A DNA stretch of 64,000 nucleotides from Chloroflexota bacterium (GCA_019873735.1 JAIOAQ010000008.1:16651-80650); one strand, 5' to 3'. Shown: positions 15,796 to 43,584, counted from the first letter of the stretch. Numbers and translations: made by a program. The notes: generated by a model from the sequence alone, not told the origin.

Positions 15796-17472
15796 TTATT
15801 TGAGCAAACTGCGTACTTCTTCCAGGAATTCATCGTTCATGAAGTCGCCTTTTTGCAAAAGGGTCTGGATTTGCCCTTCCAGACGGCTTTTTTCTTCGCT
15901 GGTAAGTTCTTTTGCCGTAGAGACAATAACGGGGATGTTGGCCGTTTCCTGGTTGGTCTTCATGGCTTCAATGACTCCGAAACCGTCAATTTCGGGCATC
16001 ATTAAGTCGAGAACGACCAGATCCGGCAATTCGCGGGTGATGACGTCAATGGCTTGCTTGCCGTCTGTTGCCTCGTAGATTGTAAAATTCCCCTGTGATT
16101 GCAGGATGCGGCGAATCAGCCGCCGCGCCTCTGGACTATCATCAACAATGGCTATGCGCGGGAAGCGGTCGGGGGCGACCTGATTGAGGGCGGCCAGCAG
16201 ACCTTCTTGCGGGGTTTCTTCTTTGGCGCGTGAAGGGAGGACAACGCTTCTGGCCCAGTTCTCGCCGAGGATGAATTGCTCGGCTGGCATGGTGTGACCG
16301 GAGCAATTGACAACGACGGTATCAGTCGGTTTGATAACGCCCTGGCGAATTAACTTGAAAAGGCCCGCAAAGGCCACGCCTGCCGCCGGTTCCATGGAGA
16401 TACCTTCCATTTTCGCGATGACGTGCATGGCGCGAAAGGCTTCTTCGTCACTAACGCTCTCGAAGGTCCCTCCAAACTCGTCCACCTGTTTTTTGAGCAA
16501 TTTGTAGGCCCGCCCAGGGTCGCCGGTGGCCAGGGTTTCAATGTGCGTGCGTGGGGAAGCAATGGGGATTGCCGATTCAAGGCCGTTTTTCCATGCTTCT
16601 ACCATGGGCGCACAACCCTCGGCTTGAATGGGCGCAATGGCCGGGATGCGGTCAATCAATCCCATGAGTTTGAGTTCGCGGAAGCCTTTGGCAATGCCAA
16701 TGGGGCCCATCCCGCCACTAATGGCCTGAACATACCAGTCGGGCGCTTTCCAGGTCAGAGGCCTGCCTGATTGCGGGAGTGGGCCAAGCAGAGCCGCCAG
16801 TTGCTCGCTGATCTCGTAGGCGATGGTTTTCATGGCCTCCACCGAGGTGATTGTGCGTGCTCCCATATCCTGATAGAGACCACGTTGTGATGCAAATTCG
16901 GCTGCGACCTGTTTGGTTTGGTCGTAAGAGCCGGTCACTTTGATCACCTGACTGCCATACAATGCAATTTCACGCATTTTTACGGCTGGTACCAGGCTGG
17001 TTACAAAGGCCCATAACTTGATGCCTGCCCGGGCGGCGTAGGCAGAGTAGGCAATGGCAACATTCCCTGTGGAAGCGGCTACCATTTCGGTAATACCGGC
17101 CTCCTTGAGCGCGGCAATGGTGACAGCCGCCTGACGGTCCTTAAAAGAAGTGGTAGGTCCCTGCCTTTCGTCTTTTATGTAAATATTCGGACAGCCAAGC
17201 ATCATCCCCAGGTTAACAGCCTGGATGAGCGGCGTTCCGCCTTCACCCAGTGACAGGCTGGGTTGTGGGTTGCGCACCGGCAGTAATTCTCGATAGCGCC
17301 ATAAATCGAAGGGGCGCGAGGAGATTTGCTCTCCCCAAATCTTGAGGGCAGATTCGTAGTCGTACTCTGCTTCTCGCCACTGACTGTTGCAGCGTGGGCA
17401 ACTGGTGGAGGTGGGAAAGTACGAGGTTGTATGCCCGCAGTCCAGGCATTTGATGGCAAAGGACGGAGACAT
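15796..17472 (-). CDS. Threonine-synthase-like PLP enzyme fused to a C-terminal response-regulator receiver domain
   Basis: 558 aa. N-terminal Cys4 zinc ribbon (CLDCG...CPRC), PLP-lysine motif TTSFKDRQ (K111), ASTGN loop and GGMGP loop. Residues ~438-545 are a REC domain (IVDDSPE, phospho-acceptor context LVVLDLMMPEIDG, VSTAK). Confidence 0.85.
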   Translation of the reverse strand: MSPSFAIKCLDCGHTTSYFPTSTSCPRCNSQWREAEYDYESALKIWGEQISSRPFDLWRYRELLPVRNPQPSLSLGEGGTPLIQAVNLGMMLGCPNIYIKDERQGPTTSFKDRQAAVTIAALKEAGITEMVAASTGNVAIAYSAYAARAGIKLWAFVTSLVPAVKMREIALYGSQVIKVTGSYDQTKQVAAEFASQRGLYQDMGARTITSVEAMKTIAYEISEQLAALLGPLPQSGRPLTWKAPDWYVQAISGGMGPIGIAKGFRELKLMGLIDRIPAIAPIQAEGCAPMVEAWKNGLESAIPIASPRTHIETLATGDPGRAYKLLKKQVDEFGGTFESVSDEEAFRAMHVIAKMEGISMEPAAGVAFAGLFKLIRQGVIKPTDTVVVNCSGHTMPAEQFILGENWARSVVLPSRAKEETPQEGLLAALNQVAPDRFPRIAIVDDSPEARRLIRRILQSQGNFTIYEATDGKQAIDVITRELPDLVVLDLMMPEIDGFGVIEAMKTNQETANIPVIVSTAKELTSEEKSRLEGQIQTLLQKGDFMNDEFLEEVRSLLK

Positions 17473-17541
17473 ATTTCTCTCTCTCTTTAGCAGGGATAGT
17501 TACTTTACTTCCAAAATTTATTTCATCTCTCGCTGGCGGAT

Positions 17542-20500
17542 TTATGGGCCTTGAATCCGTCTCAATGCGTTTTCCAGGGCGGATAACAATTCGTCTTCCT
17601 TTAGAAGTCCTTTTTGCAGCAGCCGCTGTCCAAATGCATTTAGTTGTTCGCGTTGTGTGGGTGTCAGATCGCCGCCGGTGACGACCACTACCGGAATTTG
17701 ACGATATTGCTCTTCGGCGCGCAGGCGTTCCAGAATGGCAAAACCATCCAGGTCCTCCATAAACAGATCCAAGACAATGGCATGGGGTGTGGCCGTGGTA
17801 ATGGCTTCCCATCCTTGTTTGCCTCCTTCGGCCAGGATAGGCTTGTACCGTCCGTTCTCCGATAGAATCTTGGCGATCAACCGCAAGTCATCTGCGTCGT
17901 CGTCAATAACCAGGACCTCGCGAATGCTCCCGTCGCTGTTCAGACGGTTGAGAGCATTCAGCAAATCGTCTTCCAGGATAGGCTTGACCAGATAGTCGGC
18001 TGCGCCCAGGTTGAACCCTTTTTCCTCGTCTTCGATGATGCTGCAGATAACTACCGGGATGTCGCGCGTTTCCGGGTTGGCTTTGAGGTCTTGTAAAACC
18101 TGCCAGCCATCGTATCCGGGCATCATAATGTCCAGCGTGATGGCAAAGGGTTTTAACTGCCGGGCGCGTTCGGCAGCCTTGGTGGGATCGGTCAACGAAA
18201 TGACCTGATAGCCTTGGGGTTGAAGATAACGTTCGTACAGGCTGACAACCTGAGGGTCATCGTCAATGGCCAGCACGACTCGGTTTTCTTTGGACGCGCC
18301 GGCATCGTCTTTACCGCGGTAAACAGGAATTGTAAAGTAGAATGTGCTGCCTTTTCCAACCGAACTGTGCAGACCAATCCGACCACCGTGCATTTGCACC
18401 AGATGTTGAGAGATGGACAGGCCCAGACCAGAACCGCCGGTTTTGCGGGTTGGCGACGAGTCCACCTGGGAGAAGGGCTGGAACAATTTGGCCTGATCTT
18501 CGGGGGCGATGCCAGGGCCCGAATCGGTGACGCTGATCATGATTTCCGGGTGGCCAGATGGCCCGGCTTTTACACCGGCCTCCAGGGTAATCGTTCCTTG
18601 TTCGGTGAATTTTGCCGCGTTAGAGAGCAGGTTAAGCAGCACCTGGCGAATGCGCATTGCGTCTGCGCGGACGGGAGGCAACTCTTCGGGGACAATTTTC
18701 TTCAGCGTAATTGGTTTGTCTTTGATCAGCCCGGTGATGGTAGAGAGGACACTGTTGATGGTGTCGTTGAGATTCACCTCATCGAAGGTCAATTCCATCT
18801 TACCGGCCTCAATACGAGACAGGTCGAGGATATCGTTGATCAGCCCAAGCAGATGTTGGCCTGAATTGTAGATGGCGGTCAGGTCTTGTTGTTGGAGTTC
18901 CGAAATCGGACCGTCGATTCCTTTCAGGATGACGCGCGAGAAGCCAATGATCGAGTTGAGAGGTGTCCGCAGTTCGTGACTCATATTTGCCAGGAACTGG
19001 CTCTTCAGGCGGTCCACTTCCCGCATTTCCTTGACGGCCTGTTGGGCCAGTTCGTAGGAGCGCGCATTGTCAATGGCCACAGCAATCTGGTCTGCCAGGA
19101 TTTGCAAAACAGCCGCGTTGTCGGGTGTGAAGGCGTCTACCTCGGTGGACTGGATATCCAACGCGCCAATCACGCGGTTGCCAACGCGCAGGGGGATTCC
19201 GGCCTCTGCCCGCGTTTCTGGCAGAAGGGGATTGGGGCGGTGGAGAGGGTCAAGGGCAGTGTTGTTGATGATCACGGCTTCGCCGGTCGAAGTCACCATG
19301 CCGACAACGGACTTTGAACCGACGGTGATGCTGTGTTGCCGCCTTTTCATTTCTTCACCGGCGTCGCCGGTGGCCTCTTTGAGGACAGCATTGAAGCCAG
19401 TTTCCTCAACCGTGAAAATGGCGGCGTGGTAAAAGCCGAATCTTTCGCGGATGAGATTCACGGCGCGTTTGAAGAGCAGGCTCAGGTCGAGGGTGGATGT
19501 GATCAGGCGGCCAACCTCAGCGGCGGTAGCCAGATATTCGTTTTGCCGGCGTATGGCTTCCTCGGCCCGTTTACGTTCCGTGATGTCTCGCGAAACCCAG
19601 AATACCTGGTCGTCGCTTAGTTTGGTCACCGTAGCGTAAAACCAATACCCGTTTCCACCGATTTCCAGCGGATACTCGATACTGGTGGTCTCGCCGGTGG
19701 TTAAGGTTTTTCGGATGGCCTGCATGAAGGGTTCATGCGTCTCTGCCGGAAGCACCTCTTGAATGGTTTTCCCGACCATATCTTCCGGTGGTTTGTATAA
19801 CCGGTTGGGGTTGGTTGGCGCAACTCTCACATAGCGGCCGTCTTTATCGTACACAATGATGACGTCGGTCATGGCGCTGAAAAGCGCTCGCAATTCGGAC
19901 TCCGATTTACTGAGTGCCTGTACGGCTTGTTGACGGCCCAGAGCAGTTACAATTGCCTCTCCGGCGAACTTTAGCAGGTTTTGTTCCTCTTCGTTCCAGG
20001 TTCTGGGGGCCTGGACGGCGTCAAGTCCCAGGAAACCGATCAGATTGCCGCGTTCCATCAGCGGTGAGCAGATAATGGATTGAATGTTCTCGCGTTCAAA
20101 CTCTATTCGCTCTGCCCGGCCTTCTTTGGGAATATCGGCCACTTTTGGAAAGTAGAAGGTCTGTCCTTTGCGTAACTTGTCAATCAAAAAAGGAAACGTG
20201 TTGATGGGAATGTTTTGCAGATTCTCTATTTGATGGTCAGTATTTGGAGAGCACCATTCGTTGGCGCAACTCATCAATTCACCGCGCGGGTCAATCAGGA
20301 AAACGTATGCACGGTCTACGCCGGAGAAATTCCCTAATCGTTCGAGTACCTGGTCAATCGCGGCAGAGACCTGGATGGGGTCAACGCTGGCAAAGATTGT
20401 AGAGATTTCGCTGGTGAGACGCTCGCGTTCGGCCCGCTGGCGCATTTGCTCAAACAGCAAGGCATTTTGGAGCGCGATGGCGGCCTGGTTAGCAAAAGCC

Positions 20501-22368
20501 ATCAACAGATTGCTGTCATGTTCGTCGTAAACGTTTTCTTCTTTTAGGTTCTGAACGGCCATCAGGCCAAGGAACTCATCGCCGATCATTAGAGGCACCC
20601 CCAGCCAGCTTTTGGGGACCTCGCCAATGATGGTAATGTGGTTCTCCTTGAGCCACTGGGCCACATTTTTTCTCAACAGCAAGGGTTTTCGGGTTTTGAA
20701 AATGTATCCTGTCATGCCCTCGTCAGCACTCAGGGAGACAATTGTCCGGTCGACTTCGGATTCGGTGACGTTAACCGGGTAATTGACCCGATGTGTGCTT
20801 TTGTCATAGATGCCGATGAAGAAATTTGTGGCATCCATCAACCGGGCAACGCCTTGGTAGGTCTCATTCAACACGTCTTGGGCGTCTAACTGTGAACTCA
20901 ATGCCCGCCCCAGGTCGTTCAAGACGCTCATTTCCTCGGCGCGCAGCCGGGTTTGTTCAAAAAGGCGGGCGTTTTGAATGCCAATGGCTACCGTATCGGC
21001 AAAAGATTCCAGTAGTTTTAAGTCGTCCTGGCTGTAGGCGTTGGGCTGATAACTTTGGGCAGAAAGCACGCCGATGATTTCACCGCTGAAGCGGAGCGGG
21101 GTTGCAATAACAGAACGCGGCGATCTGTATTTTTTTTCTGCATCGGCAACGCGCTTGAAGGGCAAAGGCTCTTTTTCAAGATCATTTGCAATGTATGAAT
21201 GACCAAGGCTGAGGACATAGCCGGTGAAACCGGTTTTGACATCATGCTGTTGGGGTTCGACACGGACGCCATTGTCAATGTCATAGGCATTAACAAATAC
21301 ATCTGTCCCAGGGTCGTGGAGGCTGATGAGAAAGGCATCGGCAGGCAAGATGCGGCCGATGATACGATGGGCCGTGCTGTAAACGTCTTCCAGATTCAGG
21401 TTTTGGCTGATTAAGCGACTTAATTCAACCAGAGTGTTTAACTCTTGCGCGCGGCGCTGTTCGGCCTCAAACAGGCGCGCATTCTCCAGTGAGATAGCCG
21501 CCTGGCTGGCGATTGTGCGCAGCAAGTCAAATTGATGTTCGTCATAGAGCCTGGTTTTTTCTGTGCTTTGAAGCACAATTGCCCCGATGACTCTTTCGCC
21601 AATTGCCAACGGGACGCCCATCCAACACAAAGCAGGCCGGTTATTGCCGACGAGAATGATCTCCAGACCCAATTCTTTGACGGTGTCTGTAACGTTTTCG
21701 GCAATGAAGAGTGGTTTGCGCGTGCGGAGGATGTAATCGGTCAGACCTTTGCCCAGTTGCCGTGCAGGCGGGGAGTAGCGCACGCCATGTGATGTTGCAT
21801 AGGGAAATTCGACTCGATTCTCTTTTTCATTGTAGAGTGCAATGAAAAAGTCCTCTGCTTTCATCAACTGACCTGTGTATTTATGAATGGTTTGACAGGC
21901 AGCGTTGATATCCAATTCTGCAGACAATTCGCGCCCCATTTCGTTCAAGATGGCAAGTTCATTGGCCTGGCGTTGGGTTTGCTGGAAAAGGCGCGCATTT
22001 TCAAGGGCAAGTGAGAGTTGGTCGGCTACTTGCTTGACAAGCAGTTTTTCCTCTTCGTCCCATTGGCGGTCTGCATCTTTATCAATAATTTGCAGGGTGG
22101 CCCAGTTTTGAGCGTCAAAGGGGAAGGCAAGTGTCAATTGTGCTCCATCGCCGGCTTTTGTCTTTGTATCGGTGAGGACCTGGCTTGAGGGCGCCGGGAC
22201 GGGTCTGGTTTTCGACTCCTGTCCTGTTTGCTGGCGCACAGGCGCAGCCGCTTCCCCGCTGACGGGTAGACTTTTGGTGCCTTTTCGGCTCGCTTTGGGT
22301 TTGGTTTCTTCGGGTGTAAGGCCGTCAAATAGATTCTTAAGCCGGCTGTTCACTTGTTTCTTTGACAT
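17542..22368 (-). CDS. Giant cytoplasmic hybrid histidine kinase: basic disordered N-terminus, mini-GAF, 4 GAF, PAS, sensor-family GAF, HisKA, HATPase_c, REC, REC
   Basis: 1608 aa. H-box MSHELRTPLNSI (His1131), N/G boxes (LLSNAAKF, DSGPGI, GGSGLGLSIS), REC1 (TLDIMMPGYDG) and REC2 (VLDLFMEDLDG). ENARLFE-terminated GAF repeats recur. No TM segment was seen. Confidence 0.9.
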   Translation of the reverse strand: MSKKQVNSRLKNLFDGLTPEETKPKASRKGTKSLPVSGEAAAPVRQQTGQESKTRPVPAPSSQVLTDTKTKAGDGAQLTLAFPFDAQNWATLQIIDKDADRQWDEEEKLLVKQVADQLSLALENARLFQQTQRQANELAILNEMGRELSAELDINAACQTIHKYTGQLMKAEDFFIALYNEKENRVEFPYATSHGVRYSPPARQLGKGLTDYILRTRKPLFIAENVTDTVKELGLEIILVGNNRPALCWMGVPLAIGERVIGAIVLQSTEKTRLYDEHQFDLLRTIASQAAISLENARLFEAEQRRAQELNTLVELSRLISQNLNLEDVYSTAHRIIGRILPADAFLISLHDPGTDVFVNAYDIDNGVRVEPQQHDVKTGFTGYVLSLGHSYIANDLEKEPLPFKRVADAEKKYRSPRSVIATPLRFSGEIIGVLSAQSYQPNAYSQDDLKLLESFADTVAIGIQNARLFEQTRLRAEEMSVLNDLGRALSSQLDAQDVLNETYQGVARLMDATNFFIGIYDKSTHRVNYPVNVTESEVDRTIVSLSADEGMTGYIFKTRKPLLLRKNVAQWLKENHITIIGEVPKSWLGVPLMIGDEFLGLMAVQNLKEENVYDEHDSNLLMAFANQAAIALQNALLFEQMRQRAERERLTSEISTIFASVDPIQVSAAIDQVLERLGNFSGVDRAYVFLIDPRGELMSCANEWCSPNTDHQIENLQNIPINTFPFLIDKLRKGQTFYFPKVADIPKEGRAERIEFERENIQSIICSPLMERGNLIGFLGLDAVQAPRTWNEEEQNLLKFAGEAIVTALGRQQAVQALSKSESELRALFSAMTDVIIVYDKDGRYVRVAPTNPNRLYKPPEDMVGKTIQEVLPAETHEPFMQAIRKTLTTGETTSIEYPLEIGGNGYWFYATVTKLSDDQVFWVSRDITERKRAEEAIRRQNEYLATAAEVGRLITSTLDLSLLFKRAVNLIRERFGFYHAAIFTVEETGFNAVLKEATGDAGEEMKRRQHSITVGSKSVVGMVTSTGEAVIINNTALDPLHRPNPLLPETRAEAGIPLRVGNRVIGALDIQSTEVDAFTPDNAAVLQILADQIAVAIDNARSYELAQQAVKEMREVDRLKSQFLANMSHELRTPLNSIIGFSRVILKGIDGPISELQQQDLTAIYNSGQHLLGLINDILDLSRIEAGKMELTFDEVNLNDTINSVLSTITGLIKDKPITLKKIVPEELPPVRADAMRIRQVLLNLLSNAAKFTEQGTITLEAGVKAGPSGHPEIMISVTDSGPGIAPEDQAKLFQPFSQVDSSPTRKTGGSGLGLSISQHLVQMHGGRIGLHSSVGKGSTFYFTIPVYRGKDDAGASKENRVVLAIDDDPQVVSLYERYLQPQGYQVISLTDPTKAAERARQLKPFAITLDIMMPGYDGWQVLQDLKANPETRDIPVVICSIIEDEEKGFNLGAADYLVKPILEDDLLNALNRLNSDGSIREVLVIDDDADDLRLIAKILSENGRYKPILAEGGKQGWEAITTATPHAIVLDLFMEDLDGFAILERLRAEEQYRQIPVVVVTGGDLTPTQREQLNAFGQRLLQKGLLKEDELLSALENALRRIQGP

Positions 22369-23122
22369 ATTCCATTAACTCCTGGGCCAAAACACGATAT
22401 TGTTGCGAACCACGACTACCCGGTCTGTATTCAGTGATAGGCAGGCCTGAGATAGGACTTTCACGCAATTTGGTGTCGATTTCAATAACTGTGTTGAACA
22501 ATCCTTCTCCAAACGTAGCGCGCAATTGCTCATAAATGTTTCTATGGGTACGGTTGCGCCGGTCAAGCAATGTCACCAGGATGCGGTATGCAAGGCCGGG
22601 GTTGTTATCTTCGCGCACGCGCCGGACAATGGACATCATGCTGCGCAGGGCATACGCCGAGAAGTATTCAGCCTGGGTGGGGATAATGAGCAAGTCTGCG
22701 GCGCTCAAAGCATTCAGGGTAATTGTGCCCAGGGCTGGCGGGCAGTCAAACAGAATGTAATCGTAGGGTAGTTCTCCGGCAGATTCCAGGGCGTGTTTCA
22801 GGGCGGTCAGGTGATCCACCCGCATGGGCAAGTAATGTTCGGCCGTCTCTATTTTTGAACCGGATGGGAGGATCGACAGATTCTCGATGCCGGTCTTTTG
22901 ACAGGCATCTGAAACAGGAAATGCCTCAAGCAGCACATCGCCCGAGGTGTGCTGTTCCTTTTCTGGATCAATCCCTACTGCCAGGCTTAGATTAGCCTGG
23001 GGGTCAAGATCGCAGAGCAAGACTCTCTGCCCACTTTCGGCCAATGCTGCACCGAGCGAGACGGTGGTGGTCGTTTTGGCGACCCCGCCTTTTTCGTTTG
23101 AGATTGCAATTTTATATGCCAT
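22337..23122 (-). CDS. Orphan ParA/Soj/MinD-superfamily ATPase
   Basis: 261 aa. Deviant Walker A ISNEKGGVAKTTT, Walker A' LLCDLDPQ and Walker B YILFDCPP. No parB lies nearby. The stop overlaps the kinase start by 32 nt. Confidence 0.9.
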   Translation of the reverse strand: MAYKIAISNEKGGVAKTTTTVSLGAALAESGQRVLLCDLDPQANLSLAVGIDPEKEQHTSGDVLLEAFPVSDACQKTGIENLSILPSGSKIETAEHYLPMRVDHLTALKHALESAGELPYDYILFDCPPALGTITLNALSAADLLIIPTQAEYFSAYALRSMMSIVRRVREDNNPGLAYRILVTLLDRRNRTHRNIYEQLRATFGEGLFNTVIEIDTKLRESPISGLPITEYRPGSRGSQQYRVLAQELMEYVKETSEQPA

Positions 23123-23149
23123 ATCTGCCTCATCAGCAAGGATGCTTGC

Positions 23150-26035: not shown

Positions 26036-26071
26036 TGTTTATTACCTCGTGCCAGACTGCAAAGACAAACG

Positions 26072-28231: not shown

Positions 28232-28283
28232 TCCAGGTGCTCCAAAAGAGTTTGTACCGCGGCGGCTTAAGATACTTTGCAGG

Positions 28284-29477: not shown

Positions 29478-29508
29478 TTTTTTCTCCTAACTCAGATAAT
29501 GTAAGGTG

Positions 29509-31746: not shown

Positions 31747-31766
31747 GGAGTGTCCTCTCAGACAAA

Positions 31767-32783: not shown

Positions 32784-32848
32784 TATCTTTTACTCCTCTG
32801 TGATCAGGTTAAGAAAGAATGGTTATCGAGGACATTTTCTCTGCTGGA

Positions 32849-34777: not shown

Positions 34778-34780
34778 CTC

Positions 34781-36838
34781 TTATCCCTTTCCATTGTCGG
34801 CTTTTGAGCCTGTAGCGTTGGATTCTGGTAACGTCTTTTTGCCCGCCGATTCTGCTGCCTTGTCCTGGGGCCGCAAACCAAGTTGAACAAACGTGCGAAC
34901 CGCGCCCAGCGCCTTTCCCAACTCGCGAGCCGTTTGTTGCAAGACCTTTTCGGTGCTGGTTGATTTTCGTATCTCGCTTGCAATCAGGTTCATTTGATGT
35001 TCGCGCTCAGCCAATCGTTGTTGTTCTTCAATCAATCGGGCGTTTTCAACGGCCAAACCGACCTGGTTGGCAATTTCCTGGGCAATGCTTTGTTCGCGCT
35101 CATCCCAACCCGCATCTGCCCCGACCCTTTGAATGCTGATCTTCCCGATCTTTTGGCCGCGCAATCGGATGGGAACTTCGATTTGCGCTTGCCCATTCCC
35201 GGATATTTCTGCCGTCTCCTCGGTCAGCGCCTGGATGCCAAGGGGGGTGTACACGTAGGCATGTCTTTTACGGCTTGTGTACGCTTGCCAGGCAGAGCGG
35301 ACACTTTCCATACTGGTGCGTTGGAGTTGTTGAAGCGCTTGCTGGCTTTCGGCATACAAGCGGGCATTTTCGATGGCCAATGCGATCTGATCTGCTAACG
35401 TTTGCAATACCATGACGTCGTCCTGGCTGAATGCCCGCATTTCTGTGGACTGAATATCAAGGACGCCGATGAGTTTGCCGCGTACGGACAGCGGCAGGGC
35501 CATTTCGGAACGGGTGTTGGGGAGGTCAGGATTGTTGAAAAAGACGGCATCCTCTCCAACGTCCAGCGCGATGCGTGGACGGTTGGTGGCTGCTACCATC
35601 CCAACAATGCCCTGGGAGCCAATACGCAACTGGTGGCCGCGCTCTAACATTTTTTGTCCGCCGGTGGATGATGCTGCCTGCAAAACCACATGCTGACCGG
35701 CCTGGTCGGTAATGAAAATTCCGGCGTGATAGAAACCGAACCGCTCCGAAATCAGATTCACCGCCCGGTTAAGCAACTCGTCCACCTGCCGGATGGCAGC
35801 CGCTTCGCGCGCCACCTGAGCAGCGGCTTGCAATTGAGCAGTTTTCCGCTCCAAATCGCGCGTACGCTTTTGGACTTCCTCATCCAGGTTCTTTTGCAGG
35901 TTTTCCAGGCGTTCGAGCATGATGTTGAATTGGATGGTGGCCAGGCCGATTTCATCGGTGCCGATAATATCGGCACGCTGGTGGATTTCTCCGCTTTCAA
36001 TTCGCGTCATGACATTTACCAGGTGGGCCACCGGCCGATAGATCATGTGGGAGACGATAATTGCAAGAATGCTGCTCACAATCACTGCAATTACGGCAAC
36101 CCAAATCAGTTGAACGCGCAAAGTGTACAGGCTAATGGCTTTGCCGTTCAAGATATCCACTGCAACCTGGTAAGCGCGCGGGGCTGTGGTTAAAAGCGCT
36201 ATTCCAACAGAGGATATGACCAATAAGATCAGCCGTTCCTGGAGTCTGGTTCCGCTCAGGCCGCGTTTTTGAAGCTCTGGCGAACGGGGGAGCAAAACCT
36301 GCCGCGCATTGGTCAGTCCGTATTCAATCAGAAGCACGCAACTGATGATCAGCATGGAGGCCGAAAGAAAGCCGCCAATGATCACATGGATGGCTTGCTC
36401 TACCGTAGCCCCTCCGATGTAATACATGTAAGCAGCAGCCGGAAGAATGGTCTCCAGGGTTGCAATCACCAGGGCGGCAATGCCGAATTTCCATGGATAA
36501 CTGGTAACCTCTCTCCAGGCCTGCACTTCCAGTTCGGGATTCTCGACCCCGCTTTTTCCCTTGCTCCAGGAATACAAACGCTTTCGGGCAGCGCGGGAGG
36601 CTTCATACATGTAAAGCAGGAGAAGGATATTGGCTCCCACAACAAAGGCGAAAACCGCTCCAGTCAATTGTTGGGTTTGTTTGGGCGTGAATTCTACGTT
36701 GACAAGGATGTAGTAGATTCCCAGCCCGGCAGCCCCAAAGGAGAGCAATTGGGCCAGAAACTGAATCACAAGCAGGTATGAACCACCCAGCGAACTTAAG
36801 AGTGTATCCAAAAAAGCAGGAACATATCGTTTGTTCAT
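34781..36838 (-). CDS. Output-less membrane sensor paralog 5 (6-TM N-terminus - HAMP - signalling helix - GAF - mini-GAF - tail)
   Basis: 685 aa. Six hydrophobic segments, then HAMP (DEIGLATIQFNIM), FYHAGIFITD, DVGEDAVFFNNPDLPNTRSEMALPL, GVLDIQST. Confidence 0.8.
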   Translation of the reverse strand: MNKRYVPAFLDTLLSSLGGSYLLVIQFLAQLLSFGAAGLGIYYILVNVEFTPKQTQQLTGAVFAFVVGANILLLLYMYEASRAARKRLYSWSKGKSGVENPELEVQAWREVTSYPWKFGIAALVIATLETILPAAAYMYYIGGATVEQAIHVIIGGFLSASMLIISCVLLIEYGLTNARQVLLPRSPELQKRGLSGTRLQERLILLVISSVGIALLTTAPRAYQVAVDILNGKAISLYTLRVQLIWVAVIAVIVSSILAIIVSHMIYRPVAHLVNVMTRIESGEIHQRADIIGTDEIGLATIQFNIMLERLENLQKNLDEEVQKRTRDLERKTAQLQAAAQVAREAAAIRQVDELLNRAVNLISERFGFYHAGIFITDQAGQHVVLQAASSTGGQKMLERGHQLRIGSQGIVGMVAATNRPRIALDVGEDAVFFNNPDLPNTRSEMALPLSVRGKLIGVLDIQSTEMRAFSQDDVMVLQTLADQIALAIENARLYAESQQALQQLQRTSMESVRSAWQAYTSRKRHAYVYTPLGIQALTEETAEISGNGQAQIEVPIRLRGQKIGKISIQRVGADAGWDEREQSIAQEIANQVGLAVENARLIEEQQRLAEREHQMNLIASEIRKSTSTEKVLQQTARELGKALGAVRTFVQLGLRPQDKAAESAGKKTLPESNATGSKADNGKG

Positions 36839-36842
36839 TGCA

Positions 36843-38426
36843 TCATTCCAACTTCAGTTCGATAATACCCTTGGTCGCATTGAGCGCCTGCCCAAGTTCT
36901 TTGATAGCCGTTTGCAGGATGGCGTCAATGGTTACCGCCGACCAGACCTTACTGGTGATGTCAGCAGTGGTGTGTTCTTGTATGGCGGTCTGTTGAGTCT
37001 CTTCAAGCAGACGGGCATTCTCAAGCGCCAAGGCGGCTTGGGCAGCCACCGCCTCAATCACGCTGATTTCCTCCGGACTTAGTTCGCCTTCGCTTTCAAT
37101 GACAATGTTGCCAATGGGGGTTTCGCGCAACGCCAGCGGTATGCTTATGCTCTGGCCGCTTTGCTCTGTTTCGGCCATTCCTACGTCAACCTTTATCCCC
37201 TTGCGTTTTTCGATCTGGCTCCAACTGCTGCTTAGATACTGCCGGTATACGCTATTCAACTCGTTCAGGTTTTGCTGGGCTTCCTGGTATAAGCGCGCAT
37301 TCTCAAGACCAATTGCCACCTGGCTGGCCATACCTTGCAGGGTTTCGATTTCTTGCGGCCCAAAGGCTGCTTCTTCTGTGGACTGTACGTCCAACGCACC
37401 CAGCACGCGGTCGCCGACAATGAGTGGAAGAGCAATCTCTGACCGTGTTTCAGGAAGCAGCGGGTTGTTGAAGCGAACCGCTTCTTTGCCCACATCCAAC
37501 GCCACCCGCGCCTCGCGCGTGCTGATAGCGGCTCCGACCATGCTCTGGCCGCTCACCTCCAGACGGTGACGGTTTTGGAGCATGATTTTACCGGCCGCCC
37601 CGGTCGCGCTTCTTAACTCAGCCCACTGGCCACTTTGGTCTATTAAGAACAAGCCGGCATAATAGTAACCAAATCGCTCGGTAATCAGGTTGACAATGTG
37701 CTCTATCAGTTCTTCCTGGTTGAGGCTTGCGTTTGCAGCGCGCCCGATTTCAATTACAGCCCGCAACTGTTCCCTGCTTCGGTTGGCCTGAATTTCCAAT
37801 TCTTCTTTAAGCGCAGTCAATTCCCTGTTAGCAGCGGCTTGCGCTTGCTCGCTTTGCCGGGAACGTCGCAGGGCGCTATTCATCCGGCCGATAAGCACAT
37901 AAAGGAACAGAGCAACCGCCAGAAAGATGATCGCCTGGGTAAACGTATCCTGGAGTGTGACCGGCTCCAAATTTGAGATCAGCCGCCCGGCGCTTTCCTG
38001 GTAACCGATGTAAATGATTGCCAGCACGGTTAGCAGACCAAAGATCAGCGCGCCGCTTTGCCCCAGCAATAAGCCGGCAAGCACCAACATGGCCGCATAG
38101 GCGATGATGGCCTCGTCGCGAATCCCTCCCCGCATAGCGATTGACGTAACGGCGGCAAAGATGGTCAGCAGCATTAGAACGCGGCCGGGAAGGAGAATAT
38201 TGAAATATGCCAGCACCAGCGTAATGGCCGTCAAAATACTTGCAACGATCAGCACGCCTCGATTACGGGGGTCAACCACAAGATTGAACAGCAAAATTGC
38301 TGCCAATGCCAACAGCACAATCCCCAAAAGCACAAGGGTGAGCCGGCGCTCGGCCTCGAGATCGGCCTCTGACTTTTCTGATCGGGCAGGCGGGAAGATT
38401 CTTGCCAGAATTTGCGGGAATTTCAT
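36843..38426 (-). CDS. Output-less membrane sensor paralog 6 (polytopic N-terminus - coiled coil - GAF - mini-GAF - tail; no HAMP seen)
   Basis: 527 aa. About 5-6 TM segments are joined by a coiled-coil linker directly to the family GAF (YYYAGLFLID, NPLLPETRSEIALPL, GALDVQST). Confidence 0.75.
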   Translation of the reverse strand: MKFPQILARIFPPARSEKSEADLEAERRLTLVLLGIVLLALAAILLFNLVVDPRNRGVLIVASILTAITLVLAYFNILLPGRVLMLLTIFAAVTSIAMRGGIRDEAIIAYAAMLVLAGLLLGQSGALIFGLLTVLAIIYIGYQESAGRLISNLEPVTLQDTFTQAIIFLAVALFLYVLIGRMNSALRRSRQSEQAQAAANRELTALKEELEIQANRSREQLRAVIEIGRAANASLNQEELIEHIVNLITERFGYYYAGLFLIDQSGQWAELRSATGAAGKIMLQNRHRLEVSGQSMVGAAISTREARVALDVGKEAVRFNNPLLPETRSEIALPLIVGDRVLGALDVQSTEEAAFGPQEIETLQGMASQVAIGLENARLYQEAQQNLNELNSVYRQYLSSSWSQIEKRKGIKVDVGMAETEQSGQSISIPLALRETPIGNIVIESEGELSPEEISVIEAVAAQAALALENARLLEETQQTAIQEHTTADITSKVWSAVTIDAILQTAIKELGQALNATKGIIELKLE

Positions 38427-38432
38427 TCCGAA

Positions 38433-41400
38433 TTATCTCCTCTCGGCATCCGAATCTTTACCGTTAGACTTCTCGGACGGTTCAGGGCTAACCCCTAGCC
38501 TGACCTGCATTCTCCGGGCATTGACCACCCGAGACAGTTCGCTGGCGGTCGTCGCGAGAATCGTTTGCATATCAGTCGAGCGGCGAATCTTGCTGGTTAT
38601 TTCGTAAATCAGGCGCTCGCGTTCTGCCTGCCGACGAATCTGATCCAGCAGGCGGGCATTGGCAATAATCGCCGCCAGGCTGCCGCCCAGGGTTCCCAAC
38701 AGTTCTTCATCGTTTTCGGTGTAGGCGTTAACCTGCTCGCTCTCAACGTTCAGCACACCCAGCACCTCGTTCCGATAAAGGAGCGGGACGGCAAGTTCAG
38801 AACGCGTGTTGGGACTGACTTGAATATAGCGCGGATCGTTTTCGATATTGTCCACCCGCAAGGGTTTACGATGTGCGGCCACCCAGCCAGTAATCCCGGT
38901 GCCGATCGGCACACTTACGTTGGCAACATCCTCTTCCGAATAGCCGATGTAGGCTTTGATTTCGAGCATTTGCTTCTCTTTGTTGAGCAGCATGATGGCT
39001 ACCCGGTCGCCGCCCAGGGTGACCTGCAAACCCTGCGCCGCACTGTAAAGCGCCTCTTCCAATGTGGTTCCAGAGGCCGCCGCAGTGGTGACATGATGAA
39101 GCAGACGGTGCTGCGACAGGTGCTCCTGCGTTTCAGCAAATAATTCGGTGTTGATGACCGCCACTGCCAGCTGGTCGGCCAGAATCTGCAGCGTTTGCAG
39201 GTTGCTCTCGCTGAACGCGTAAGGCAGGTTGCTTTGCACATCCAGTGCTCCCAGAATGCGCTCACCGACCTTGAGAGGGATGGCGGCCTCCGAACGCGTA
39301 TCTGGTAGCAGGGGATTGGCAAAATAGGTGACGTCTTTGGTGGTGTCGTTGACGACCAGGGGTTCACCGCGCCCGGTCACGTAGCCGATGACCGATTTAG
39401 ACCCAACGCCCAGTTTATGACCCATGCGTTTCATCTGTGCCCCGGCATCTCCGGTAGCCTCTCGCACGGTGGCGTATTCTCCGCTTGGATCAATCAGAAA
39501 AACCGCCGCGTGATAGAAGCCAAATCGGTCGCGAATCAAGTTGATGGCGGTATGCAGCAATTCGTCCAGGTTGAGCGATCGGCTGATATCGCGGGCAATT
39601 TCGGCTGCTGTTTGCAATTGAATACTTTGCGTGCGGCTCTCTTCCAGCAGGCGAATATTATGAATGGCTCCTGCCACCTGTGCTGCCACTGCATTCAAGA
39701 AACGCAGGTCGTTTTCATCGAACTGATTTTCGCGTCGGTTATCTTGCAGGATTAACGCGCCAATCGCTTCGCCTCTTGCCAGAAGCGGCGTCCCCAGCCA
39801 GGATTTGGCAGGCTGCCCAATTGTCTTGGCTCCCAGCGCCGCGAGGCGCTTCTCAACGCTCTCCACCAGCATGAGCGGTTGTCTGGTGCGAATCAGGATG
39901 GAGGTGAGCCCCTCGCCCAGAGGGAAGGGTTCCAGCGTTGTGATTTGCCCGTCTTCGTACAGGTAAGGAACAGAGATGCTTTCTTTCTGCCTGTCGTACA
40001 GCGCGATCATGAAACTGTAATCGCCAACGGTCTGACGAATCTGCTCGTGCAGCGTGGTATAGAAAGTCTGCAAATCACTGGCCACCATCACCGACTGGCT
40101 GATGGCTGCCAGGGCCTCCATTTCTGCCAGGCGGCGTTCGATGGAACGCGAAGCATTGATCTTTTCCAGCGAAGTGGCGACAAAGCCGGCCAGGTTGGCG
40201 TAGGGTTGCACATTGGCCGCCGTGAGGCTTCCCTTTTGTGTCGAACCAAGGACAATCAGGGCGGTCAATTGTTCGTTGACGGTGATGGGCAAAAAGGCCG
40301 CCATCTGGCAACCCAACTGGCGGGCATAGCGTATCAGCGTAGTAGGAAGGTTGGACGGTTTGGTCAGGTCGGCCAGCGTCAACCCGGATGCGAGATGAGG
40401 CGCCAGGTCGACAGGAGAAAGATCCAGTTTACGAGATGAAAACTCCACCATTTGTATCCCGGCTGCATCCGTTACAGAGATTGGCTCAAAGGCTTTGCCG
40501 CTGGCGACCAGCACGGCGGAAATGTAAGGAGCGTCAGATAAGACCTGACCGACGCTCTGCAAGACACTTTCTTCGGTTTGCGCTTCGGCAATCTGACGGC
40601 TGGCTCGATACAGGCGTTCCAATTCATTCAGGTTGACCTCGGTGGAGGCGGCCAGTTCAATGTTCTGGATGGCGCTGGCAATCTGGTTTGCCAGGGTTTG
40701 CAGGGTGACAATGGTGGCATCGTCGAAGGCTTCAGGTTCTGTGCTTTGTACATCCAGTGCGCCCAGCACAAGGCTGCCGGCGGCAATCGGAATGCCCACC
40801 TCGGCGCGTGTATCGGGCAGGAGCGGGTTCTTAAAGTGCATGGGGTCTTCGCCAACATCTGAAGCCACGCGCGGTTTGTTGTTCTCGGTTACCCAACCGA
40901 TAATAGACTGCGAACCGACTGCCAGGCTGTGACCGCGCTCGCGCATGGCCTCTGCCGCCGGCCCGTAGACGGCCCGCAGCGTCGCGGTTTTGCCGGCCCG
41001 GTCGAGGAGGAAGACGCCGGCATGGTAGAAGCCAAAACGTTCAACAATCAACTTCACGGTTTTGTTCAGCAGGTCGTCCAGATTGATTGCAGAAGTGATG
41101 TCCTGGGCGACTTCTGCGGCTGTACGAATTTGGCTGGTGCGTTCTTCCACGCGCGCTTCCAGCGATTGATAAAGGGTGCTTAATTCGTCAGCCATGTGGT
41201 TGAACGACCAGGCCAACAAACCGAGTTCGTCATTGCGGCGGCTGGTCAGCCGTTCTTCAAAGTTTCCCTCCGCAAAATGGCGTGTGGTCTCCACCATGTT
41301 AAGCAGAGGCTTGACCAACTGATTCGTACCGACCCACACCACGCCTGCCATGCCTACAATCGTCAATGCAACTAGAATGGCCATGAAAGGCGCCAGGCTG

Positions 41401-42350
41401 TTCAGTTGTTGAAAGACGCGCTCTTCGGGAATCTCAACCACAAGCCCTGTATTGAGGAAGCCCGCCCAGCGGCCGACGGCAATGACCGCTTCGCCATCTG
41501 GGTTGACAAACATGATCAACTCGTCGCCTTTTCCGGCTTGCAGTTTCGAGGCAGATAGCAAGTCGCCTTGTTGAGCAGATGGCTCAAATGCGGCCAGTTC
41601 TTTGCGGTAAGGGTTGATCCCAATGAAATGATTATCAGCGGTGACAAAATACGGCTTGAAACTTCGGTTGAAGGTTGTCAGGTTGTTTAAGATGCTTTGG
41701 ACGTTCTTCTGCTCCGATATGCCTATCAAAGCCCCGTTGCGTCCCCTGACATTGCCAAATTGATTGTATTGTTCAATGGTGATGAAGACAATCTGATCAG
41801 GATAAAGCGGTTCAAAGTTATAGACGGCCAACGTCTCATCATGGGTGGCCTGAATCAGGTCGTAGAATGGCGAGCCGGATATATCTACGCCTTCCCAGGC
41901 GGGGTTGCTTGCAATATGAATGACACCGTCAGCGCGCACAAAGAGGAAGTTGTTAAAGACAGGAGTCCCTTCCTGGCGGTTGACCTTTTCAAAGATGTCA
42001 ACCACGTTGCTTCGCTCTAGTTTGAATTGCAGGGTACCACGGCTCACCGGCAGAGTCTTTTCCAGTGCGTCGGTAAATTCCTTCATGCGAACGATACGAT
42101 TCAGACGTACCGCTTTTGCACGTACCGAGCCTTGCACTTGAGTCATCTGGGATTCCATTGCAGTCTGAATCTGCGCCGAAATCTGGTTTAGCAGCAGGGC
42201 ACGTGCTCGCAGGTAGGCGCTGGCGCCCATGATTAATAGGGGAATGATCGAGACAGCCACCAGCGTGAGGGCCATGGTGCGCGCTAACCGCCCTCGGAAT
42301 TGGGGCCTCTGGTCTTTTTTCGGTTCAGGCGGGACAGGTGAGATTGTCAT
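38433..42350 (-). CDS. Output-less membrane sensor paralog 7 (TM - double-Cache-like - TM - HAMP - five GAF-like domains - tail)
   Basis: The ORF track gives 38433..42461. I place the start at Met38 (42350, MTISPVPPEPKK), 7 nt after the upstream RR stop, because the longer form would overlap that gene by 104 nt. Two family GAFs are present (FYHAGVFLLD and FYHAAVFLID; NPLLPDTRAE/SE), plus three other GAF-like repeats. Confidence 0.8.
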   Translation of the reverse strand: MTISPVPPEPKKDQRPQFRGRLARTMALTLVAVSIIPLLIMGASAYLRARALLLNQISAQIQTAMESQMTQVQGSVRAKAVRLNRIVRMKEFTDALEKTLPVSRGTLQFKLERSNVVDIFEKVNRQEGTPVFNNFLFVRADGVIHIASNPAWEGVDISGSPFYDLIQATHDETLAVYNFEPLYPDQIVFITIEQYNQFGNVRGRNGALIGISEQKNVQSILNNLTTFNRSFKPYFVTADNHFIGINPYRKELAAFEPSAQQGDLLSASKLQAGKGDELIMFVNPDGEAVIAVGRWAGFLNTGLVVEIPEERVFQQLNSLAPFMAILVALTIVGMAGVVWVGTNQLVKPLLNMVETTRHFAEGNFEERLTSRRNDELGLLAWSFNHMADELSTLYQSLEARVEERTSQIRTAAEVAQDITSAINLDDLLNKTVKLIVERFGFYHAGVFLLDRAGKTATLRAVYGPAAEAMRERGHSLAVGSQSIIGWVTENNKPRVASDVGEDPMHFKNPLLPDTRAEVGIPIAAGSLVLGALDVQSTEPEAFDDATIVTLQTLANQIASAIQNIELAASTEVNLNELERLYRASRQIAEAQTEESVLQSVGQVLSDAPYISAVLVASGKAFEPISVTDAAGIQMVEFSSRKLDLSPVDLAPHLASGLTLADLTKPSNLPTTLIRYARQLGCQMAAFLPITVNEQLTALIVLGSTQKGSLTAANVQPYANLAGFVATSLEKINASRSIERRLAEMEALAAISQSVMVASDLQTFYTTLHEQIRQTVGDYSFMIALYDRQKESISVPYLYEDGQITTLEPFPLGEGLTSILIRTRQPLMLVESVEKRLAALGAKTIGQPAKSWLGTPLLARGEAIGALILQDNRRENQFDENDLRFLNAVAAQVAGAIHNIRLLEESRTQSIQLQTAAEIARDISRSLNLDELLHTAINLIRDRFGFYHAAVFLIDPSGEYATVREATGDAGAQMKRMGHKLGVGSKSVIGYVTGRGEPLVVNDTTKDVTYFANPLLPDTRSEAAIPLKVGERILGALDVQSNLPYAFSESNLQTLQILADQLAVAVINTELFAETQEHLSQHRLLHHVTTAAASGTTLEEALYSAAQGLQVTLGGDRVAIMLLNKEKQMLEIKAYIGYSEEDVANVSVPIGTGITGWVAAHRKPLRVDNIENDPRYIQVSPNTRSELAVPLLYRNEVLGVLNVESEQVNAYTENDEELLGTLGGSLAAIIANARLLDQIRRQAERERLIYEITSKIRRSTDMQTILATTASELSRVVNARRMQVRLGVSPEPSEKSNGKDSDAERR

Positions 42351-42357
42351 GGGAAAC

Positions 42358-42834
42358 CTAATGCAGTTCCCATACCGATTCGCCGGCCAGAATACGGCGG
42401 ATTTGGTCTGGGAATCGGTCGGGGTCAAGTGGTTTGCCGAGGAATCCATCAAAGCCGGCATCGCGGGCTTTGTTCATTTGTTCTTGACTGGCCTCTGCGG
42501 TTACGGCCACAATCGGAATATTCTTGAGATGCTCGGTGGCGCGGATTTTTCGCAAAGCACCGTAGCCATCCTCGTAAGGCAGCCGGATATCCATCAGGAT
42601 CAAATCCAGACGTTGCAACGTGTCGGCATATTCGACGACTTCATAGCCGGAAGTTTTCCACTCGCAATGGATGCCCAGGTATCCCAACATGCGGGCAATC
42701 AACACGAAGTTGGAGACATTATCTTCGACCACCAGGACGGTGGCGTCTTTGGGAATCACGGCCTTGCGCGTTGCCTGGCTTTGTCCGCCTTCGGGCTGGT
42801 TTTCTTCTGGCGAGAAAGCAACAAAGGGGTTCAT
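42358..42834 (-). CDS. Single-domain response regulator (REC only)
   Basis: 158 aa. VVEDN acidic pocket, phospho-acceptor context LILMDIRLPYEDG, VAVTA, and GFDGFLGKP lysine. Confidence 0.9.
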   Translation of the reverse strand: MNPFVAFSPEENQPEGGQSQATRKAVIPKDATVLVVEDNVSNFVLIARMLGYLGIHCEWKTSGYEVVEYADTLQRLDLILMDIRLPYEDGYGALRKIRATEHLKNIPIVAVTAEASQEQMNKARDAGFDGFLGKPLDPDRFPDQIRRILAGESVWELH

Positions 42835-42839
42835 AACCT

Positions 42840-43220
42840 TTACCCGCCCTTTCTTATATAGCGTTCCACTTGCTGGGTTAAGATGTCAATATCAATCGGC
42901 TTTTGGATGTAGCCATCGCAACCGGCCTCCAGGGATTTCTCCCGGTCGCCGCGCATGACATTTGCCGTTACTGCTACAATAGGAATCTTTGACATTCCAG
43001 GGGTTGACTTGATTTTTGCCGTTAGTGTGTAGCCGTCAACCTCGGGCATGTTGATATCCATCAAAATCAAGTCGGGTTTTTCGGTTTCAATCATTTTCAT
43101 GGCGTCATTGGCATTGGTTGCTTCAACCACAGTATAGCCATCGGCCATCAACACCCGGCGGACCAACATGCGGTTGTCAAAGTTATCTTCAACGTATAGC
43201 ACTTTGCCTTTGTCTGTCAT
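42840..43220 (-). CDS. Single-domain CheY-like response regulator (REC only)
   Basis: 126 aa. YVEDN, LILMDINMPEVDG, VAVTA, GYIQKP. GGAGG lies 9 nt upstream of the ATG. It is the first gene of the minus-strand block. Confidence 0.9.
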   Translation of the reverse strand: MTDKGKVLYVEDNFDNRMLVRRVLMADGYTVVEATNANDAMKMIETEKPDLILMDINMPEVDGYTLTAKIKSTPGMSKIPIVAVTANVMRGDREKSLEAGCDGYIQKPIDIDILTQQVERYIRKGG

Positions 43221-43507: not shown

Positions 43508-43584
43508 GTCACGGTGGAACAAGAAAAAATACAGCCACCTGGCCGCTTTGGGGGCGCAAGATGGCTATACTTCTGTAATTATTG

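Follow-up and report, generated by a model that had tools for sequence, protein, structure and literature searches.

How can membrane sensors that end without an output domain pass on what they sense? The question is raised by a gene cluster on the minus strand of a 64,000-nt stretch of DNA (the window) from a Chloroflexota bacterium (GCA_019873735.1 JAIOAQ010000008.1:16651-80650), which encodes seven such sensors together with two solute-binding proteins, two CheY-like single-domain receivers, a Soj-type ParA ATPase, one soluble hybrid histidine kinase, and a pyridoxal-phosphate (PLP) enzyme of the threonine synthase (ThrC) family fused to a receiver. We assign a probability of about 0.5 to the reading that the cluster is one conserved signalling unit of the Anaerolineales, a two-component hub organized like a receptor array, in which a ParA-coupled kinase would control the PLP enzyme with its exporter and two CheY-like proteins. 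The reading is built on the parts and their domains, on sensors without output, on synteny across the order, on the coupling of ParA to the kinase, on a conserved N-terminal peptide of the kinase, and on complementary fragments of a GAF domain in sensors and kinase.

A conserved unit with sharp edges

Listing and translation of the open reading frames (ORFs) gave fourteen consecutive minus-strand genes (g1 to g14) from 43220 down to 15796, as an initial annotation of this DNA had described. Its intervals in transcription order (5, 7, 6, 4, 3, 65, 20, 31, 52, 36 and 27 nt, a 32-nt overlap, then 69 nt) are reproduced exactly if g3 begins at the ATG at 42350, which is its probable start; the longest g3 ORF begins at 42461 and would overlap g2. 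The annotation had taken 15796-43220 as the whole unit, of which the fourteen genes stand and the lower boundary does not, the conserved unit running on for one more gene, an EamA gene at 14768-15718. The features of the cluster, all on the minus strand, are as follows.

42840-43220 (-): g1, single-domain receiver (CheY-like); Pfam Response_reg E = 2e-29; first gene of the conserved cluster
42358-42834 (-): g2, single-domain receiver with a 30-aa N-terminal extension; Pfam Response_reg; D/T/K receiver residues seen in the sequence
38433-42350 (-): g3, large membrane sensor; 2 transmembrane (TM) segments, periplasmic region, HAMP, about 5 GAF, C-terminal tail
36843-38426 (-): g4, sensor; 5 TM, GAF1, reduced GAF2, tail; HAMP match absent
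34781-36838 (-): g5, sensor; 6 TM, HAMP, GAF1, GAF2, tail
32849-34777 (-): g6, sensor; Cache-like periplasmic domain, HAMP, GAF1, GAF2, tail
31767-32783 (-): g7, lipoprotein solute-binding protein, Bmp/PnrA; Pfam Bmp E = 3e-33; lipobox LTAC
29509-31746 (-): g8, sensor; helical periplasmic domain (weak HBM match), HAMP, GAF1, GAF2, tail
28284-29477 (-): g9, lipoprotein solute-binding protein, Peripla_BP_6, LivJ-like; Pfam E = 5e-35; lipobox ISGC
26072-28231 (-): g10, sensor; dCache, HAMP, GAF1, GAF2, tail; the paralog chosen for modelling
26075-26260 (-): g10 C-terminal tail, residues 658-719; first third of a GAF domain by hhalign
23150-26035 (-): g11, sensor directly upstream of ParA; 7 N-terminal TM, dCache, further TM, HAMP, GAF1, GAF2, tail
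22337-23122 (-): g12, Soj-type ParA ATPase; Pfam AAA_31 E = 4e-49 (AAA_31/CbiA); no adjacent ParB
17542-22368 (-): g13, soluble hybrid histidine kinase; 5 GAF stretches, PAS, HisKA, HATPase_c, 2 REC (Pfam)
22306-22368 (-): g13 N-terminal peptide, residues 1-21, MSKKQVNSRLKNLFDGLTPEE; contains the ParA stop codon (32-nt overlap)
21979-22140 (-): g13 "island", residues 77-130; beta-hairpin and helix, last third of a GAF domain by hhalign
18952-18978 (-): g13 H-box MSHELRTPL; regular-expression scan; inside the Pfam HisKA match
15796-17472 (-): g14, zinc ribbon, ThrC-family PLP enzyme and C-terminal receiver; Pfam PALP E = 7e-64 and Response_reg
14768-15718 (-): EamA/DMT-family transporter, 15th cluster gene; Pfam EamA twice

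Pfam scans of the cluster proteins recovered the five receiver (REC) domains claimed earlier (g1, g2, two on g13 and one on g14) and, in agreement with the annotation, returned no match to a DNA-binding, GGDEF/EAL, methyl-accepting chemotaxis protein (MCP) signalling, CheA/CheW or PP2C-type output. A regular-expression scan of all fourteen proteins located exactly one H-box, MSHELRTPL at residue 1131 of g13, again as proposed. The share of coding capacity given over to GAF proteins had been put at about 70 percent and has to be corrected, since it computes to 80%, or to 62% counting the sensors alone. The count of seven HAMP/GAF sensors holds for GAF, which is found in all seven, and needs amending for HAMP, for which g4 has no Pfam match. 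A hydropathy scan predicts 2-8 TM segments in each of the seven sensors, none in g1, g2, g12, g13 and g14, and lipoprotein-type signals in g7 and g9; the segment at residues 536-554 of g6, within the cytoplasmic C-terminal module, is probably spurious. Of ten cluster and flank proteins compared with NCBIfam, g6 and g10 among them, not one scores above a curated family cut-off.

The arrangement recurs in relatives. A genome scan with ParA as anchor found 527 relatives, of which 80 loci were returned and mapped by tblastn, and a metagenome scan with g1 as anchor yielded 80 loci. ParA is 66-80% identical across the genome loci, nearly all of which are Anaerolineales metagenome-assembled genomes (MAGs), including Ca. 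Villigracilis, UTCFX1, CFX2 and Brevefilum. Where the contig permits, the order found in Anaerolineales genomes is tandem sensors, ParA, multi-GAF hybrid kinase, and ThrC-like enzyme with receiver; the annotation had allowed for the outcome that no relative shares the gene order, and the order is kept across the Anaerolineales. A kinase ortholog lies directly 3′ of ParA in 68 of the 80 loci (kinase core 68% identical), and the ThrC-like enzyme with receiver comes next in 64 of 80 (median identity 76%); the ParA loci lacking either gene have less than 10 kb of downstream sequence and hence presumably represent contig ends. All 60 loci with the full 10 kb upstream of ParA carry 2-7 tandem same-strand sensor-module genes, 57 of them carrying 4-6, and a Pfam-annotated relative (L084) has the identical order, including a 1299-aa equivalent of g3.

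Both ends of the unit are well defined. In the metagenome loci, where g1 orthologs have a median identity of 68%, g2 adjoins g1 in 51 of the 54 loci with enough sequence, and a g3-like multi-GAF sensor follows g2 in all 35 relatives whose downstream sequence reaches 3.5 kb, the succession of receiver, receiver and large sensor forming the conserved head of the cluster. The median identity of g2 in relatives, 83%, is the highest among the cluster proteins measured. At the other end, an EamA ortholog lies on the same strand, at a median of 42 nt past the g14 stop, in 52 of 53 relatives, and the gene beyond EamA varies among genomes. The LysM-M23 gene found upstream in the window is next to g1 in 0 of 40 loci. 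The unit thus has sharp conserved edges, from g1 to EamA (43220 to 14768, about 28 kb), within variable flanks. Because the arrangement recurs in 80 genome and 80 metagenome loci while the flanks differ, it is not a product of chance.

Some further observations concern the relatives. Two loci labelled as Bacteroidota and Syntrophothermus MAGs (L008 and L011) contain the same cluster; mis-binning of Anaerolineales contigs is the most likely explanation. Short metagenome contigs carry g14 in exact copy. In 49 of 53 relatives (L003-L082), one or more convergent genes with HATPase and REC follow EamA on the opposite strand, about 1.7 kb past the stop of the ThrC-like gene; the equivalent position of the window holds DegV (13833-14669, +).

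Sensors, kinase and ParA

The seven paralogous sensors (g3, g4, g5, g6, g8, g10 and g11) share one layout, a coiled coil, GAF1, a long helix, a reduced GAF2 and a conserved C-terminal tail. Pfam finds HAMP and GAF in g3, g5, g6, g8, g10 and g11, with Cache-type matches in g6, g10 and g11; it reports two GAF stretches per sensor in six of the seven and one in g5 (for GAF_2/GAF_3), and four stretches over the roughly five GAF domains of g3, whose periplasmic region has no Pfam match. GAF1 is highly conserved and contains an NPxLPxTRSE loop, and the NKFDE cyclic-nucleotide motif is absent from the sensors by eye. An AlphaFold model of g10 residues 350-719 (71-sequence alignment, predicted local distance difference test (pLDDT) 85) consists of two GAF-type domains joined by a long helix, the last ~17 residues being coil of lower confidence, and a Foldseek search of this model against the PDB returned tandem-GAF modules only (phytochrome GAF-PHY, PDE2A/5A and CyaB2; E = 1e-9 to 2e-10). 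The earlier claim that the seven paralogs have no output domain is in accordance with these results, with only HAMP, GAF and Cache found by Pfam and NCBIfam and only tandem GAF found for g10 by AlphaFold and Foldseek. On the same searches we rejected a hidden output domain in the sensors.

Variation is concentrated at the sensor N-termini. By tblastn, the N-terminal domains match in 0-7 of the 80 loci and the C-terminal module in 79 of 80. Nearly all of 293 sensor ORFs of relatives have the tail at or near the C-terminus, most of them ending within ~10 aa and a minority having extensions of up to ~28 aa; between the stop codon of the last sensor and the ParA start there are -4 to +27 nt. The sensor family is large, with at least 7717 proteins matching at E ≤ 1e-10. 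The best 120 of these align over nearly the full query at 48-60% identity, have only HAMP, GAF or sensor-type Pfam matches, are mostly 570-650 aa long on contigs able to hold the whole gene and, where named, are almost always called just "GAF/HAMP domain-containing protein".

When GAF2 and tail were made into a profile, it matched 87,182 representative proteins. Because the best matches are giant poly-GAF proteins with 6-21 matches each, the C-terminal module is a generic GAF-GAF junction, and the idea that it is a distinct new domain was rejected. The tail was also considered as a degenerate dimerization and histidine phosphotransfer (DHp) domain serving as phosphodonor, a candidate rejected in turn; the conserved histidine is absent and the tail aligns to the start of a GAF domain. 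What sets the sensors apart is that the protein ends just past the first strand of the next GAF. The giant poly-GAF proteins in the representative library (P0251-P0400) reach 3952 aa, and many share the truncated-GAF tail of the sensors.

Members of the sensor family also occur elsewhere. On a 4.4-Mb Anaerolineales contig (L083, 4938-13590), three sensors of the family stand together with no ParA and no kinase. The group adjoins genes for a PatA_N (PATAN) protein, a Ras/Arf-like small GTPase, a hydrolase and an ABC_sub_bind binding protein, and is found immediately upstream of acyl-CoA carboxylase genes; the window has equivalents of these carboxylase genes at 718-4319. This arrangement of the three sensors may reflect a link to polarity or motility modules, or may be a remnant.

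The soluble protein g13 is, judged by its sequence features, a hybrid kinase of the HisKA class, for which autophosphorylation and phosphotransfer are predicted. Its parts run in the order N-terminal peptide, disordered linker, GAF fragment, GAF domains, PAS, a GAF of the GAF1 type, HisKA, HATPase and two receivers. Specifically, the HisKA match (Pfam E = 3e-21) spans residues 1122-1189 and includes the H-box, the HATPase_c match has E = 4e-29 with the N, G1 and G2 boxes intact by eye, and Pfam reports two Response_reg stretches. Kinase orthologs range from 759 to 1942 aa in length. The HisKA-proximal GAF is of the same type as GAF1 of the sensors, to which it is 36-43% identical, and this shared subtype fits, without proving it, the GAF-GAF contact between sensors and kinase proposed in the initial annotation.

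The gene directly upstream encodes the ParA. Among solved structures, g12 is closest to the ParA family protein 8ray, Thermus Soj (1wcv) and H. pylori Soj (6iub), and all 80 orthologs have the same Walker A sequence, EKGGVAKTT, which conforms to the deviant motif KGGxxK[ST]. The start codon of 63 kinase orthologs falls before the ParA gene has ended, the two genes typically overlapping by 10-37 nt; ParA and kinase are translationally coupled in nearly all loci, a closer tie to ParA than the initial annotation had been aware of. The first 330 residues of the kinase comprise two conserved elements parted by a non-conserved linker rich in Pro, Ala, Ser and Lys. The first element is an N-terminal peptide with the consensus M[PS]KKKxxxKRLxKLFxx[IV]xPE, present in 63 of 64 kinases, of which residues K4, R9, L10, L13 and F14 are at least 90% conserved (65 sequences) and residues 1-14 have a net charge of +4. 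An AlphaFold model of g13 residues 1-330, also made with 65 sequences, contains a helix at 3-12, disorder at 21-73, a hairpin and helix (pLDDT 62-88) that make up the second element, termed the island, and a complete GAF after the island (pLDDT ~96).

ParA/MinD ATPases are connected to their cargo by partner proteins, which usually have their genes next to that of the ATPase and act through an N-terminus that is disordered and positively charged; chemoreceptor arrays are one such cargo (PMC10241942, PMC11407121). The kinase g13 agrees with the partner rule of PMC10241942 in that its start overlaps the ParA stop and a basic peptide is followed by a disordered linker. Because the basic, disordered N-terminus and the adjacency match this rule, we infer that the kinase would be both partner and cargo of ParA, the best-supported new mechanistic point of our analysis. 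The peptide itself is a candidate ParA-interaction peptide or a candidate membrane-binding amphipathic helix.

The island and the sensor tail are further related to each other. When aligned by hhalign to a full GAF1 of 187 positions, the tail covers positions 17-70 (helix, helix, first strand; probability 85%, E = 6e-6) and the island positions 133-187 (last two strands, last helix; probability 96%, E = 3e-9), and the two profile-profile placements do not overlap. The island, with the consensus LxLAFPF..WATLQ..RxW..LLVKQVxDQLSLALENARLFQ, shows the strongest conservation within the first 330 kinase residues, matches the beta-beta-alpha element of the sensors, and is modelled as strands at 77-83 and 89-95 with a helix from residue 105. 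The tail, in the g10 monomer model, is formed by helices and then coil (pLDDT 64-74). Tail and island are orphan fragments in their own proteins, and in each model the complete GAF next to the fragment is predicted more confidently.

The first and last strands of a GAF sheet pair with each other, and for this reason tail and island may complement each other in trans. A speculative extension, which we consider quite improbable, is that sensors and kinase would join through such split-GAF complementation, tail and island forming a mini-domain, into a ParA-partitioned, array-like body that controls both synthesis and export of an amino-acid-derived compound. Were it true, the mini-domain would dock many different sensors onto one kinase, and the compound could be, for example, a signal or a cross-fed metabolite passing between cells of a filament or consortium.

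Outputs, binding proteins and flanking genes

All five receivers retain, by eye, the acidic pocket, the acceptor Asp, the Thr/Ser and the Lys. The 83% conservation of g2 suggests that it contacts a conserved cellular target. In g14, the acceptor Asp489 of the receiver and the PLP lysine K111 are both invariant in 58 orthologs.

The best solved matches of g14 are threonine synthases (E = 1e-41 to 1e-35), and an alignment to Thermus ThrC shows that the PLP-lysine motif SFKDR and the S-T-G-N loop (S134-N137, also invariant in the 58 orthologs) are retained. The protein scores below both NCBIfam threonine synthase cut-offs (253 vs 303 for PRK08197 and 153 vs 167 for TIGR00260). At the substrate-phosphate contacts of Thermus ThrC, which we take to be T88, N154, S155, R160 and N188, g14 has V138, G204, A205, S210 and G254; a nearby conserved residue, R206, could compensate. 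Four of these g14 positions are invariant in the 58 orthologs, and at S210, the counterpart of R160, 40 orthologs have S and 18 have A. By these sequence comparisons g14 represents a distinct, strongly constrained clade of the ThrC family that may or may not produce threonine. The product of the neighbouring EamA gene has a weak NCBIfam match to a carboxylate/amino acid/amine transporter family, and the E. coli threonine/homoserine exporter RhtA belongs to the EamA/DMT superfamily. The pairing of g14 with EamA suggests receiver-controlled synthesis coupled to transport, either export or uptake, of an amino-acid-like compound.

The initial annotation had included two orphan solute-binding proteins in the integrated system. 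Both are present and stand apart from a transporter, with no ABC permease or ATPase gene beside g7 or g9, whose neighbours are sensors only. As core parts of the cluster they were rejected for want of conservation, g7 having an ortholog in 0 and g9 in 2 of the 80 loci. The sensor arrays of relatives seldom include non-GAF genes, of which there are 25 ORFs in 19 loci. Lipoprotein binding proteins of the NMT1 type form the largest interspersed group (9 loci), three of four other representatives scanned with Pfam are periplasmic (Peripla_BP_6, PBP_like_2 and a multihaem-like protein), and several of the remaining ORFs look spurious or fragmentary. Orphan binding proteins are thus a recurring but interchangeable element, and by analogy with LuxP-LuxQ and TorT-TorS they are probably co-receptors for neighbouring sensors. 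Two proteins of ~330-400 aa encoded among sensors of relatives (L084 8728-9936 and L070 4449-5441) give weak Cytochrome_C7 (multihaem-like) matches, which may point to redox sensing.

Upstream of the cluster, a tRNA-Gly(CCC) gene (43584-43656, -) lies between g1 and the LysM-M23 peptidase gene (43702-45177, -), and a third single-domain receiver gene (137 aa, PhoB-like receiver; 45552-45965, -) is found on the same strand. The best promoter-like site of the region (43697-43668, 11/12 matches) and a terminator-like hairpin (43546-43531) flank the tRNA gene and are probably its own, not those of the cluster. A leader RNA or riboswitch upstream of g1 was rejected on the grounds that these strong promoter-like and terminator-like sites belong to the tRNA-Gly gene. 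Elsewhere in the window, two ORFs, at 4718-6757 (-) (679 aa) and 51322-52146 (-) (274 aa), have no Pfam match at E ≤ 0.001.

The proposed scheme, its alternatives and known systems

In the scheme that we propose, a variable set of sensors (seven here, and 4-6 within 10 kb upstream of ParA in most relatives) would detect periplasmic or membrane cues, some of them probably aided by adjacent lipoprotein binding proteins. Each sensor, with an input domain of its own, would relay the signal via HAMP and coiled coil into the conserved tandem-GAF module. The enzyme-less sensors would then work through protein-protein contact with the one soluble multi-GAF hybrid kinase, while the Soj-type ParA would bind the basic N-terminal peptide of this kinase and position or partition it as cargo. 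The kinase would phosphorylate its own two receivers, g1, g2 and the receiver of g14, and g14 together with EamA would serve to synthesize an amino-acid-like compound in a regulated way and to export it (or take it up).

Several points weigh against this scheme. Its interactions and phosphotransfer steps are all inferred, the contact between sensors and kinase among them. The sensors are not necessarily dedicated to g13, because their family is huge and has members away from ParA and kinase, as in the L083 group. The cluster contains no Hpt domain, and the flow would accordingly run, probably, from one kinase to several receivers, some of which may be phosphate sinks. Simple promoter and terminator scans gave sites no more numerous than in shuffled sequence and are thus uninformative on operon structure. 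For a nucleoid-bound ParA, membrane-anchored sensors make awkward cargo. The kinase peptide forms an amphipathic cationic helix that may bind the membrane rather than ParA; compared with the PDB it gave nothing significant, the sole weak resemblance being to an amphipathic 19-mer of ribosomal protein L1 (E = 0.68), and it has a similar KRLF in common with KGFLKRLFGG, which we take to be the membrane-targeting sequence of E. coli MinD.

There are rival explanations. The genes may be co-regulated but mechanistically independent, the sensors acting on other partners or only binding ligands and the cluster being kept for co-expression or by descent. Such independence would suit the size of the sensor family, the abundance of proteins that match its junction profile and the L083 group of three sensors beside PatA_N and a small GTPase, yet we hold it to be unlikely. 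Sharp cluster edges between varying flanks speak against passive synteny, the sensors of relatives abut ParA at -4 to +27 nt, the kinase contains both the GAF1 subtype and the beta-beta-alpha element of the sensors, and sensors without output require a partner, the kinase being the sole signalling enzyme that is always there. We also doubt that the N-terminal helix of the kinase serves to target it to the membrane and thereby bring it to the sensors, with ParA engaged separately in chromosome partition or regulation. The predicted helix does present I/L/L/F/I on one face with flanking Lys/Arg, the L1 (not significant) and MinD resemblances point in the same direction, and g12 is closest to chromosomal Soj proteins; however, Asp/Glu on the helix weaken membrane binding, ParB is absent from the neighbourhood, and at nearly every locus the kinase gene begins before that of ParA has ended. 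Moreover, membrane binding and ParA binding are not exclusive, and the N-terminus of MinE does both. A basic, disordered N-terminus encoded next to the ATPase is also what the rule for ParA/MinD partners describes (PMC10241942).

A further alternative concerns the output. In it, g14 is a housekeeping threonine synthase with receiver regulation, the EamA protein is a threonine/homoserine exporter, and the cluster is mainly a nutrient-sensing amino-acid regulator, a possibility that deserves to be kept in mind even though we do not think it probable. The best family and structure matches of g14 are threonine synthases, its PLP lysine and S-T-G-N motif are invariant, its conservation is very high (76%), RhtA is an EamA/DMT protein, and the interspersed binding proteins come from nutrient-binding families. 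Set against this, g14 falls below both curated cut-offs, the residues that we take for substrate-phosphate contacts differ (V, G, A, S/A and G, four of them invariant), and neither hom nor thrB was found among the flanking ORFs scanned.

If the receptor-array-like hub operates as proposed, it would be a second, independent design for connecting many receptors to one kinase, with GAF and HisKA in place of MCP, CheW and CheA, and a histidine kinase would join the list of cargoes of ParA-type ATPases. It would also give a testable role to thousands of proteins of abundant Chloroflexota labelled only "GAF domain-containing protein". In addition, direct control over a PLP enzyme, here a receiver-fused one of the ThrC family paired with an exporter, would be unusual as the output of a two-component system and may bear on metabolite exchange by these bacteria.

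The initial annotation knew of no described system with this composition, and none was found in the literature searched. Individual parts of the cluster do have known counterparts. Histidine kinases ruled by separate accessory sensors include UhpC-UhpB, BceAB-BceS, DctA-DcuS, LuxP-LuxQ and TorT-TorS, in which, as would be the case here, a non-kinase sensor modulates the kinase by contact and periplasmic binding proteins can act as co-receptors; the present cluster differs in having 4-7 or more paralogous non-transporter sensors per kinase, which share GAF domains with it, and in having a soluble kinase. In the stressosome (RsbR paralogs, RsbS and RsbT), paralogs with variable N-termini and a conserved C-terminal module co-assemble to control one kinase, as the sensors would do here, whereas the cluster has no STAS or RsbT-type serine kinase match by Pfam, its sensors are membrane proteins, and its predicted output is His-Asp phosphotransfer. 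The cytoplasmic part of the sensors has the fold of the tandem-GAF modules of PDE2A/PDE5A, CyaB2 and phytochrome GAF-PHY, but those modules are fused to a catalytic output where the cluster sensors stop. The enzyme g14 shares the PALP fold, SFKDR and the S-T-G-N loop with ThrC and other fold-type II PLP enzymes, and departs from ThrC in its N-terminal zinc ribbon, its C-terminal receiver, its score below the cut-offs and its differing phosphate residues.

The closest functional analogue is the ParA-positioned chemosensory array. Like the arrays with ParA-like ATPases of Vibrio (ParC/ParP) and Rhodobacter (PpfA/TlpT), the cluster combines many receptors of variable input and conserved cytoplasmic module with one kinase, CheY-like receivers and a ParA-family ATPase. 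Rhodobacter TlpT is said to be a partner of the ParA-family ATPase with a basic N-terminal peptide. A partner protein with such a peptide is a further likeness between these arrays and the cluster (PMC11407121, PMC10241942). Unlike the arrays, the cluster has no MCP signalling domain, CheA, CheW, CheR or CheB by Pfam, and no CheA kinase or CheW adaptor was found among the fourteen cluster genes or the 20 flanking ORFs scanned. Its receptors end in tandem GAF domains instead, and its kinase is a HisKA hybrid that is itself the candidate ParA partner. HisKA kinases and ParA/MinD ATPases are known families; what appears to be new, as read from the sequences, is the proposed combination of a two-component system that has accessory sensors with positioning as the cargo of a ParA.

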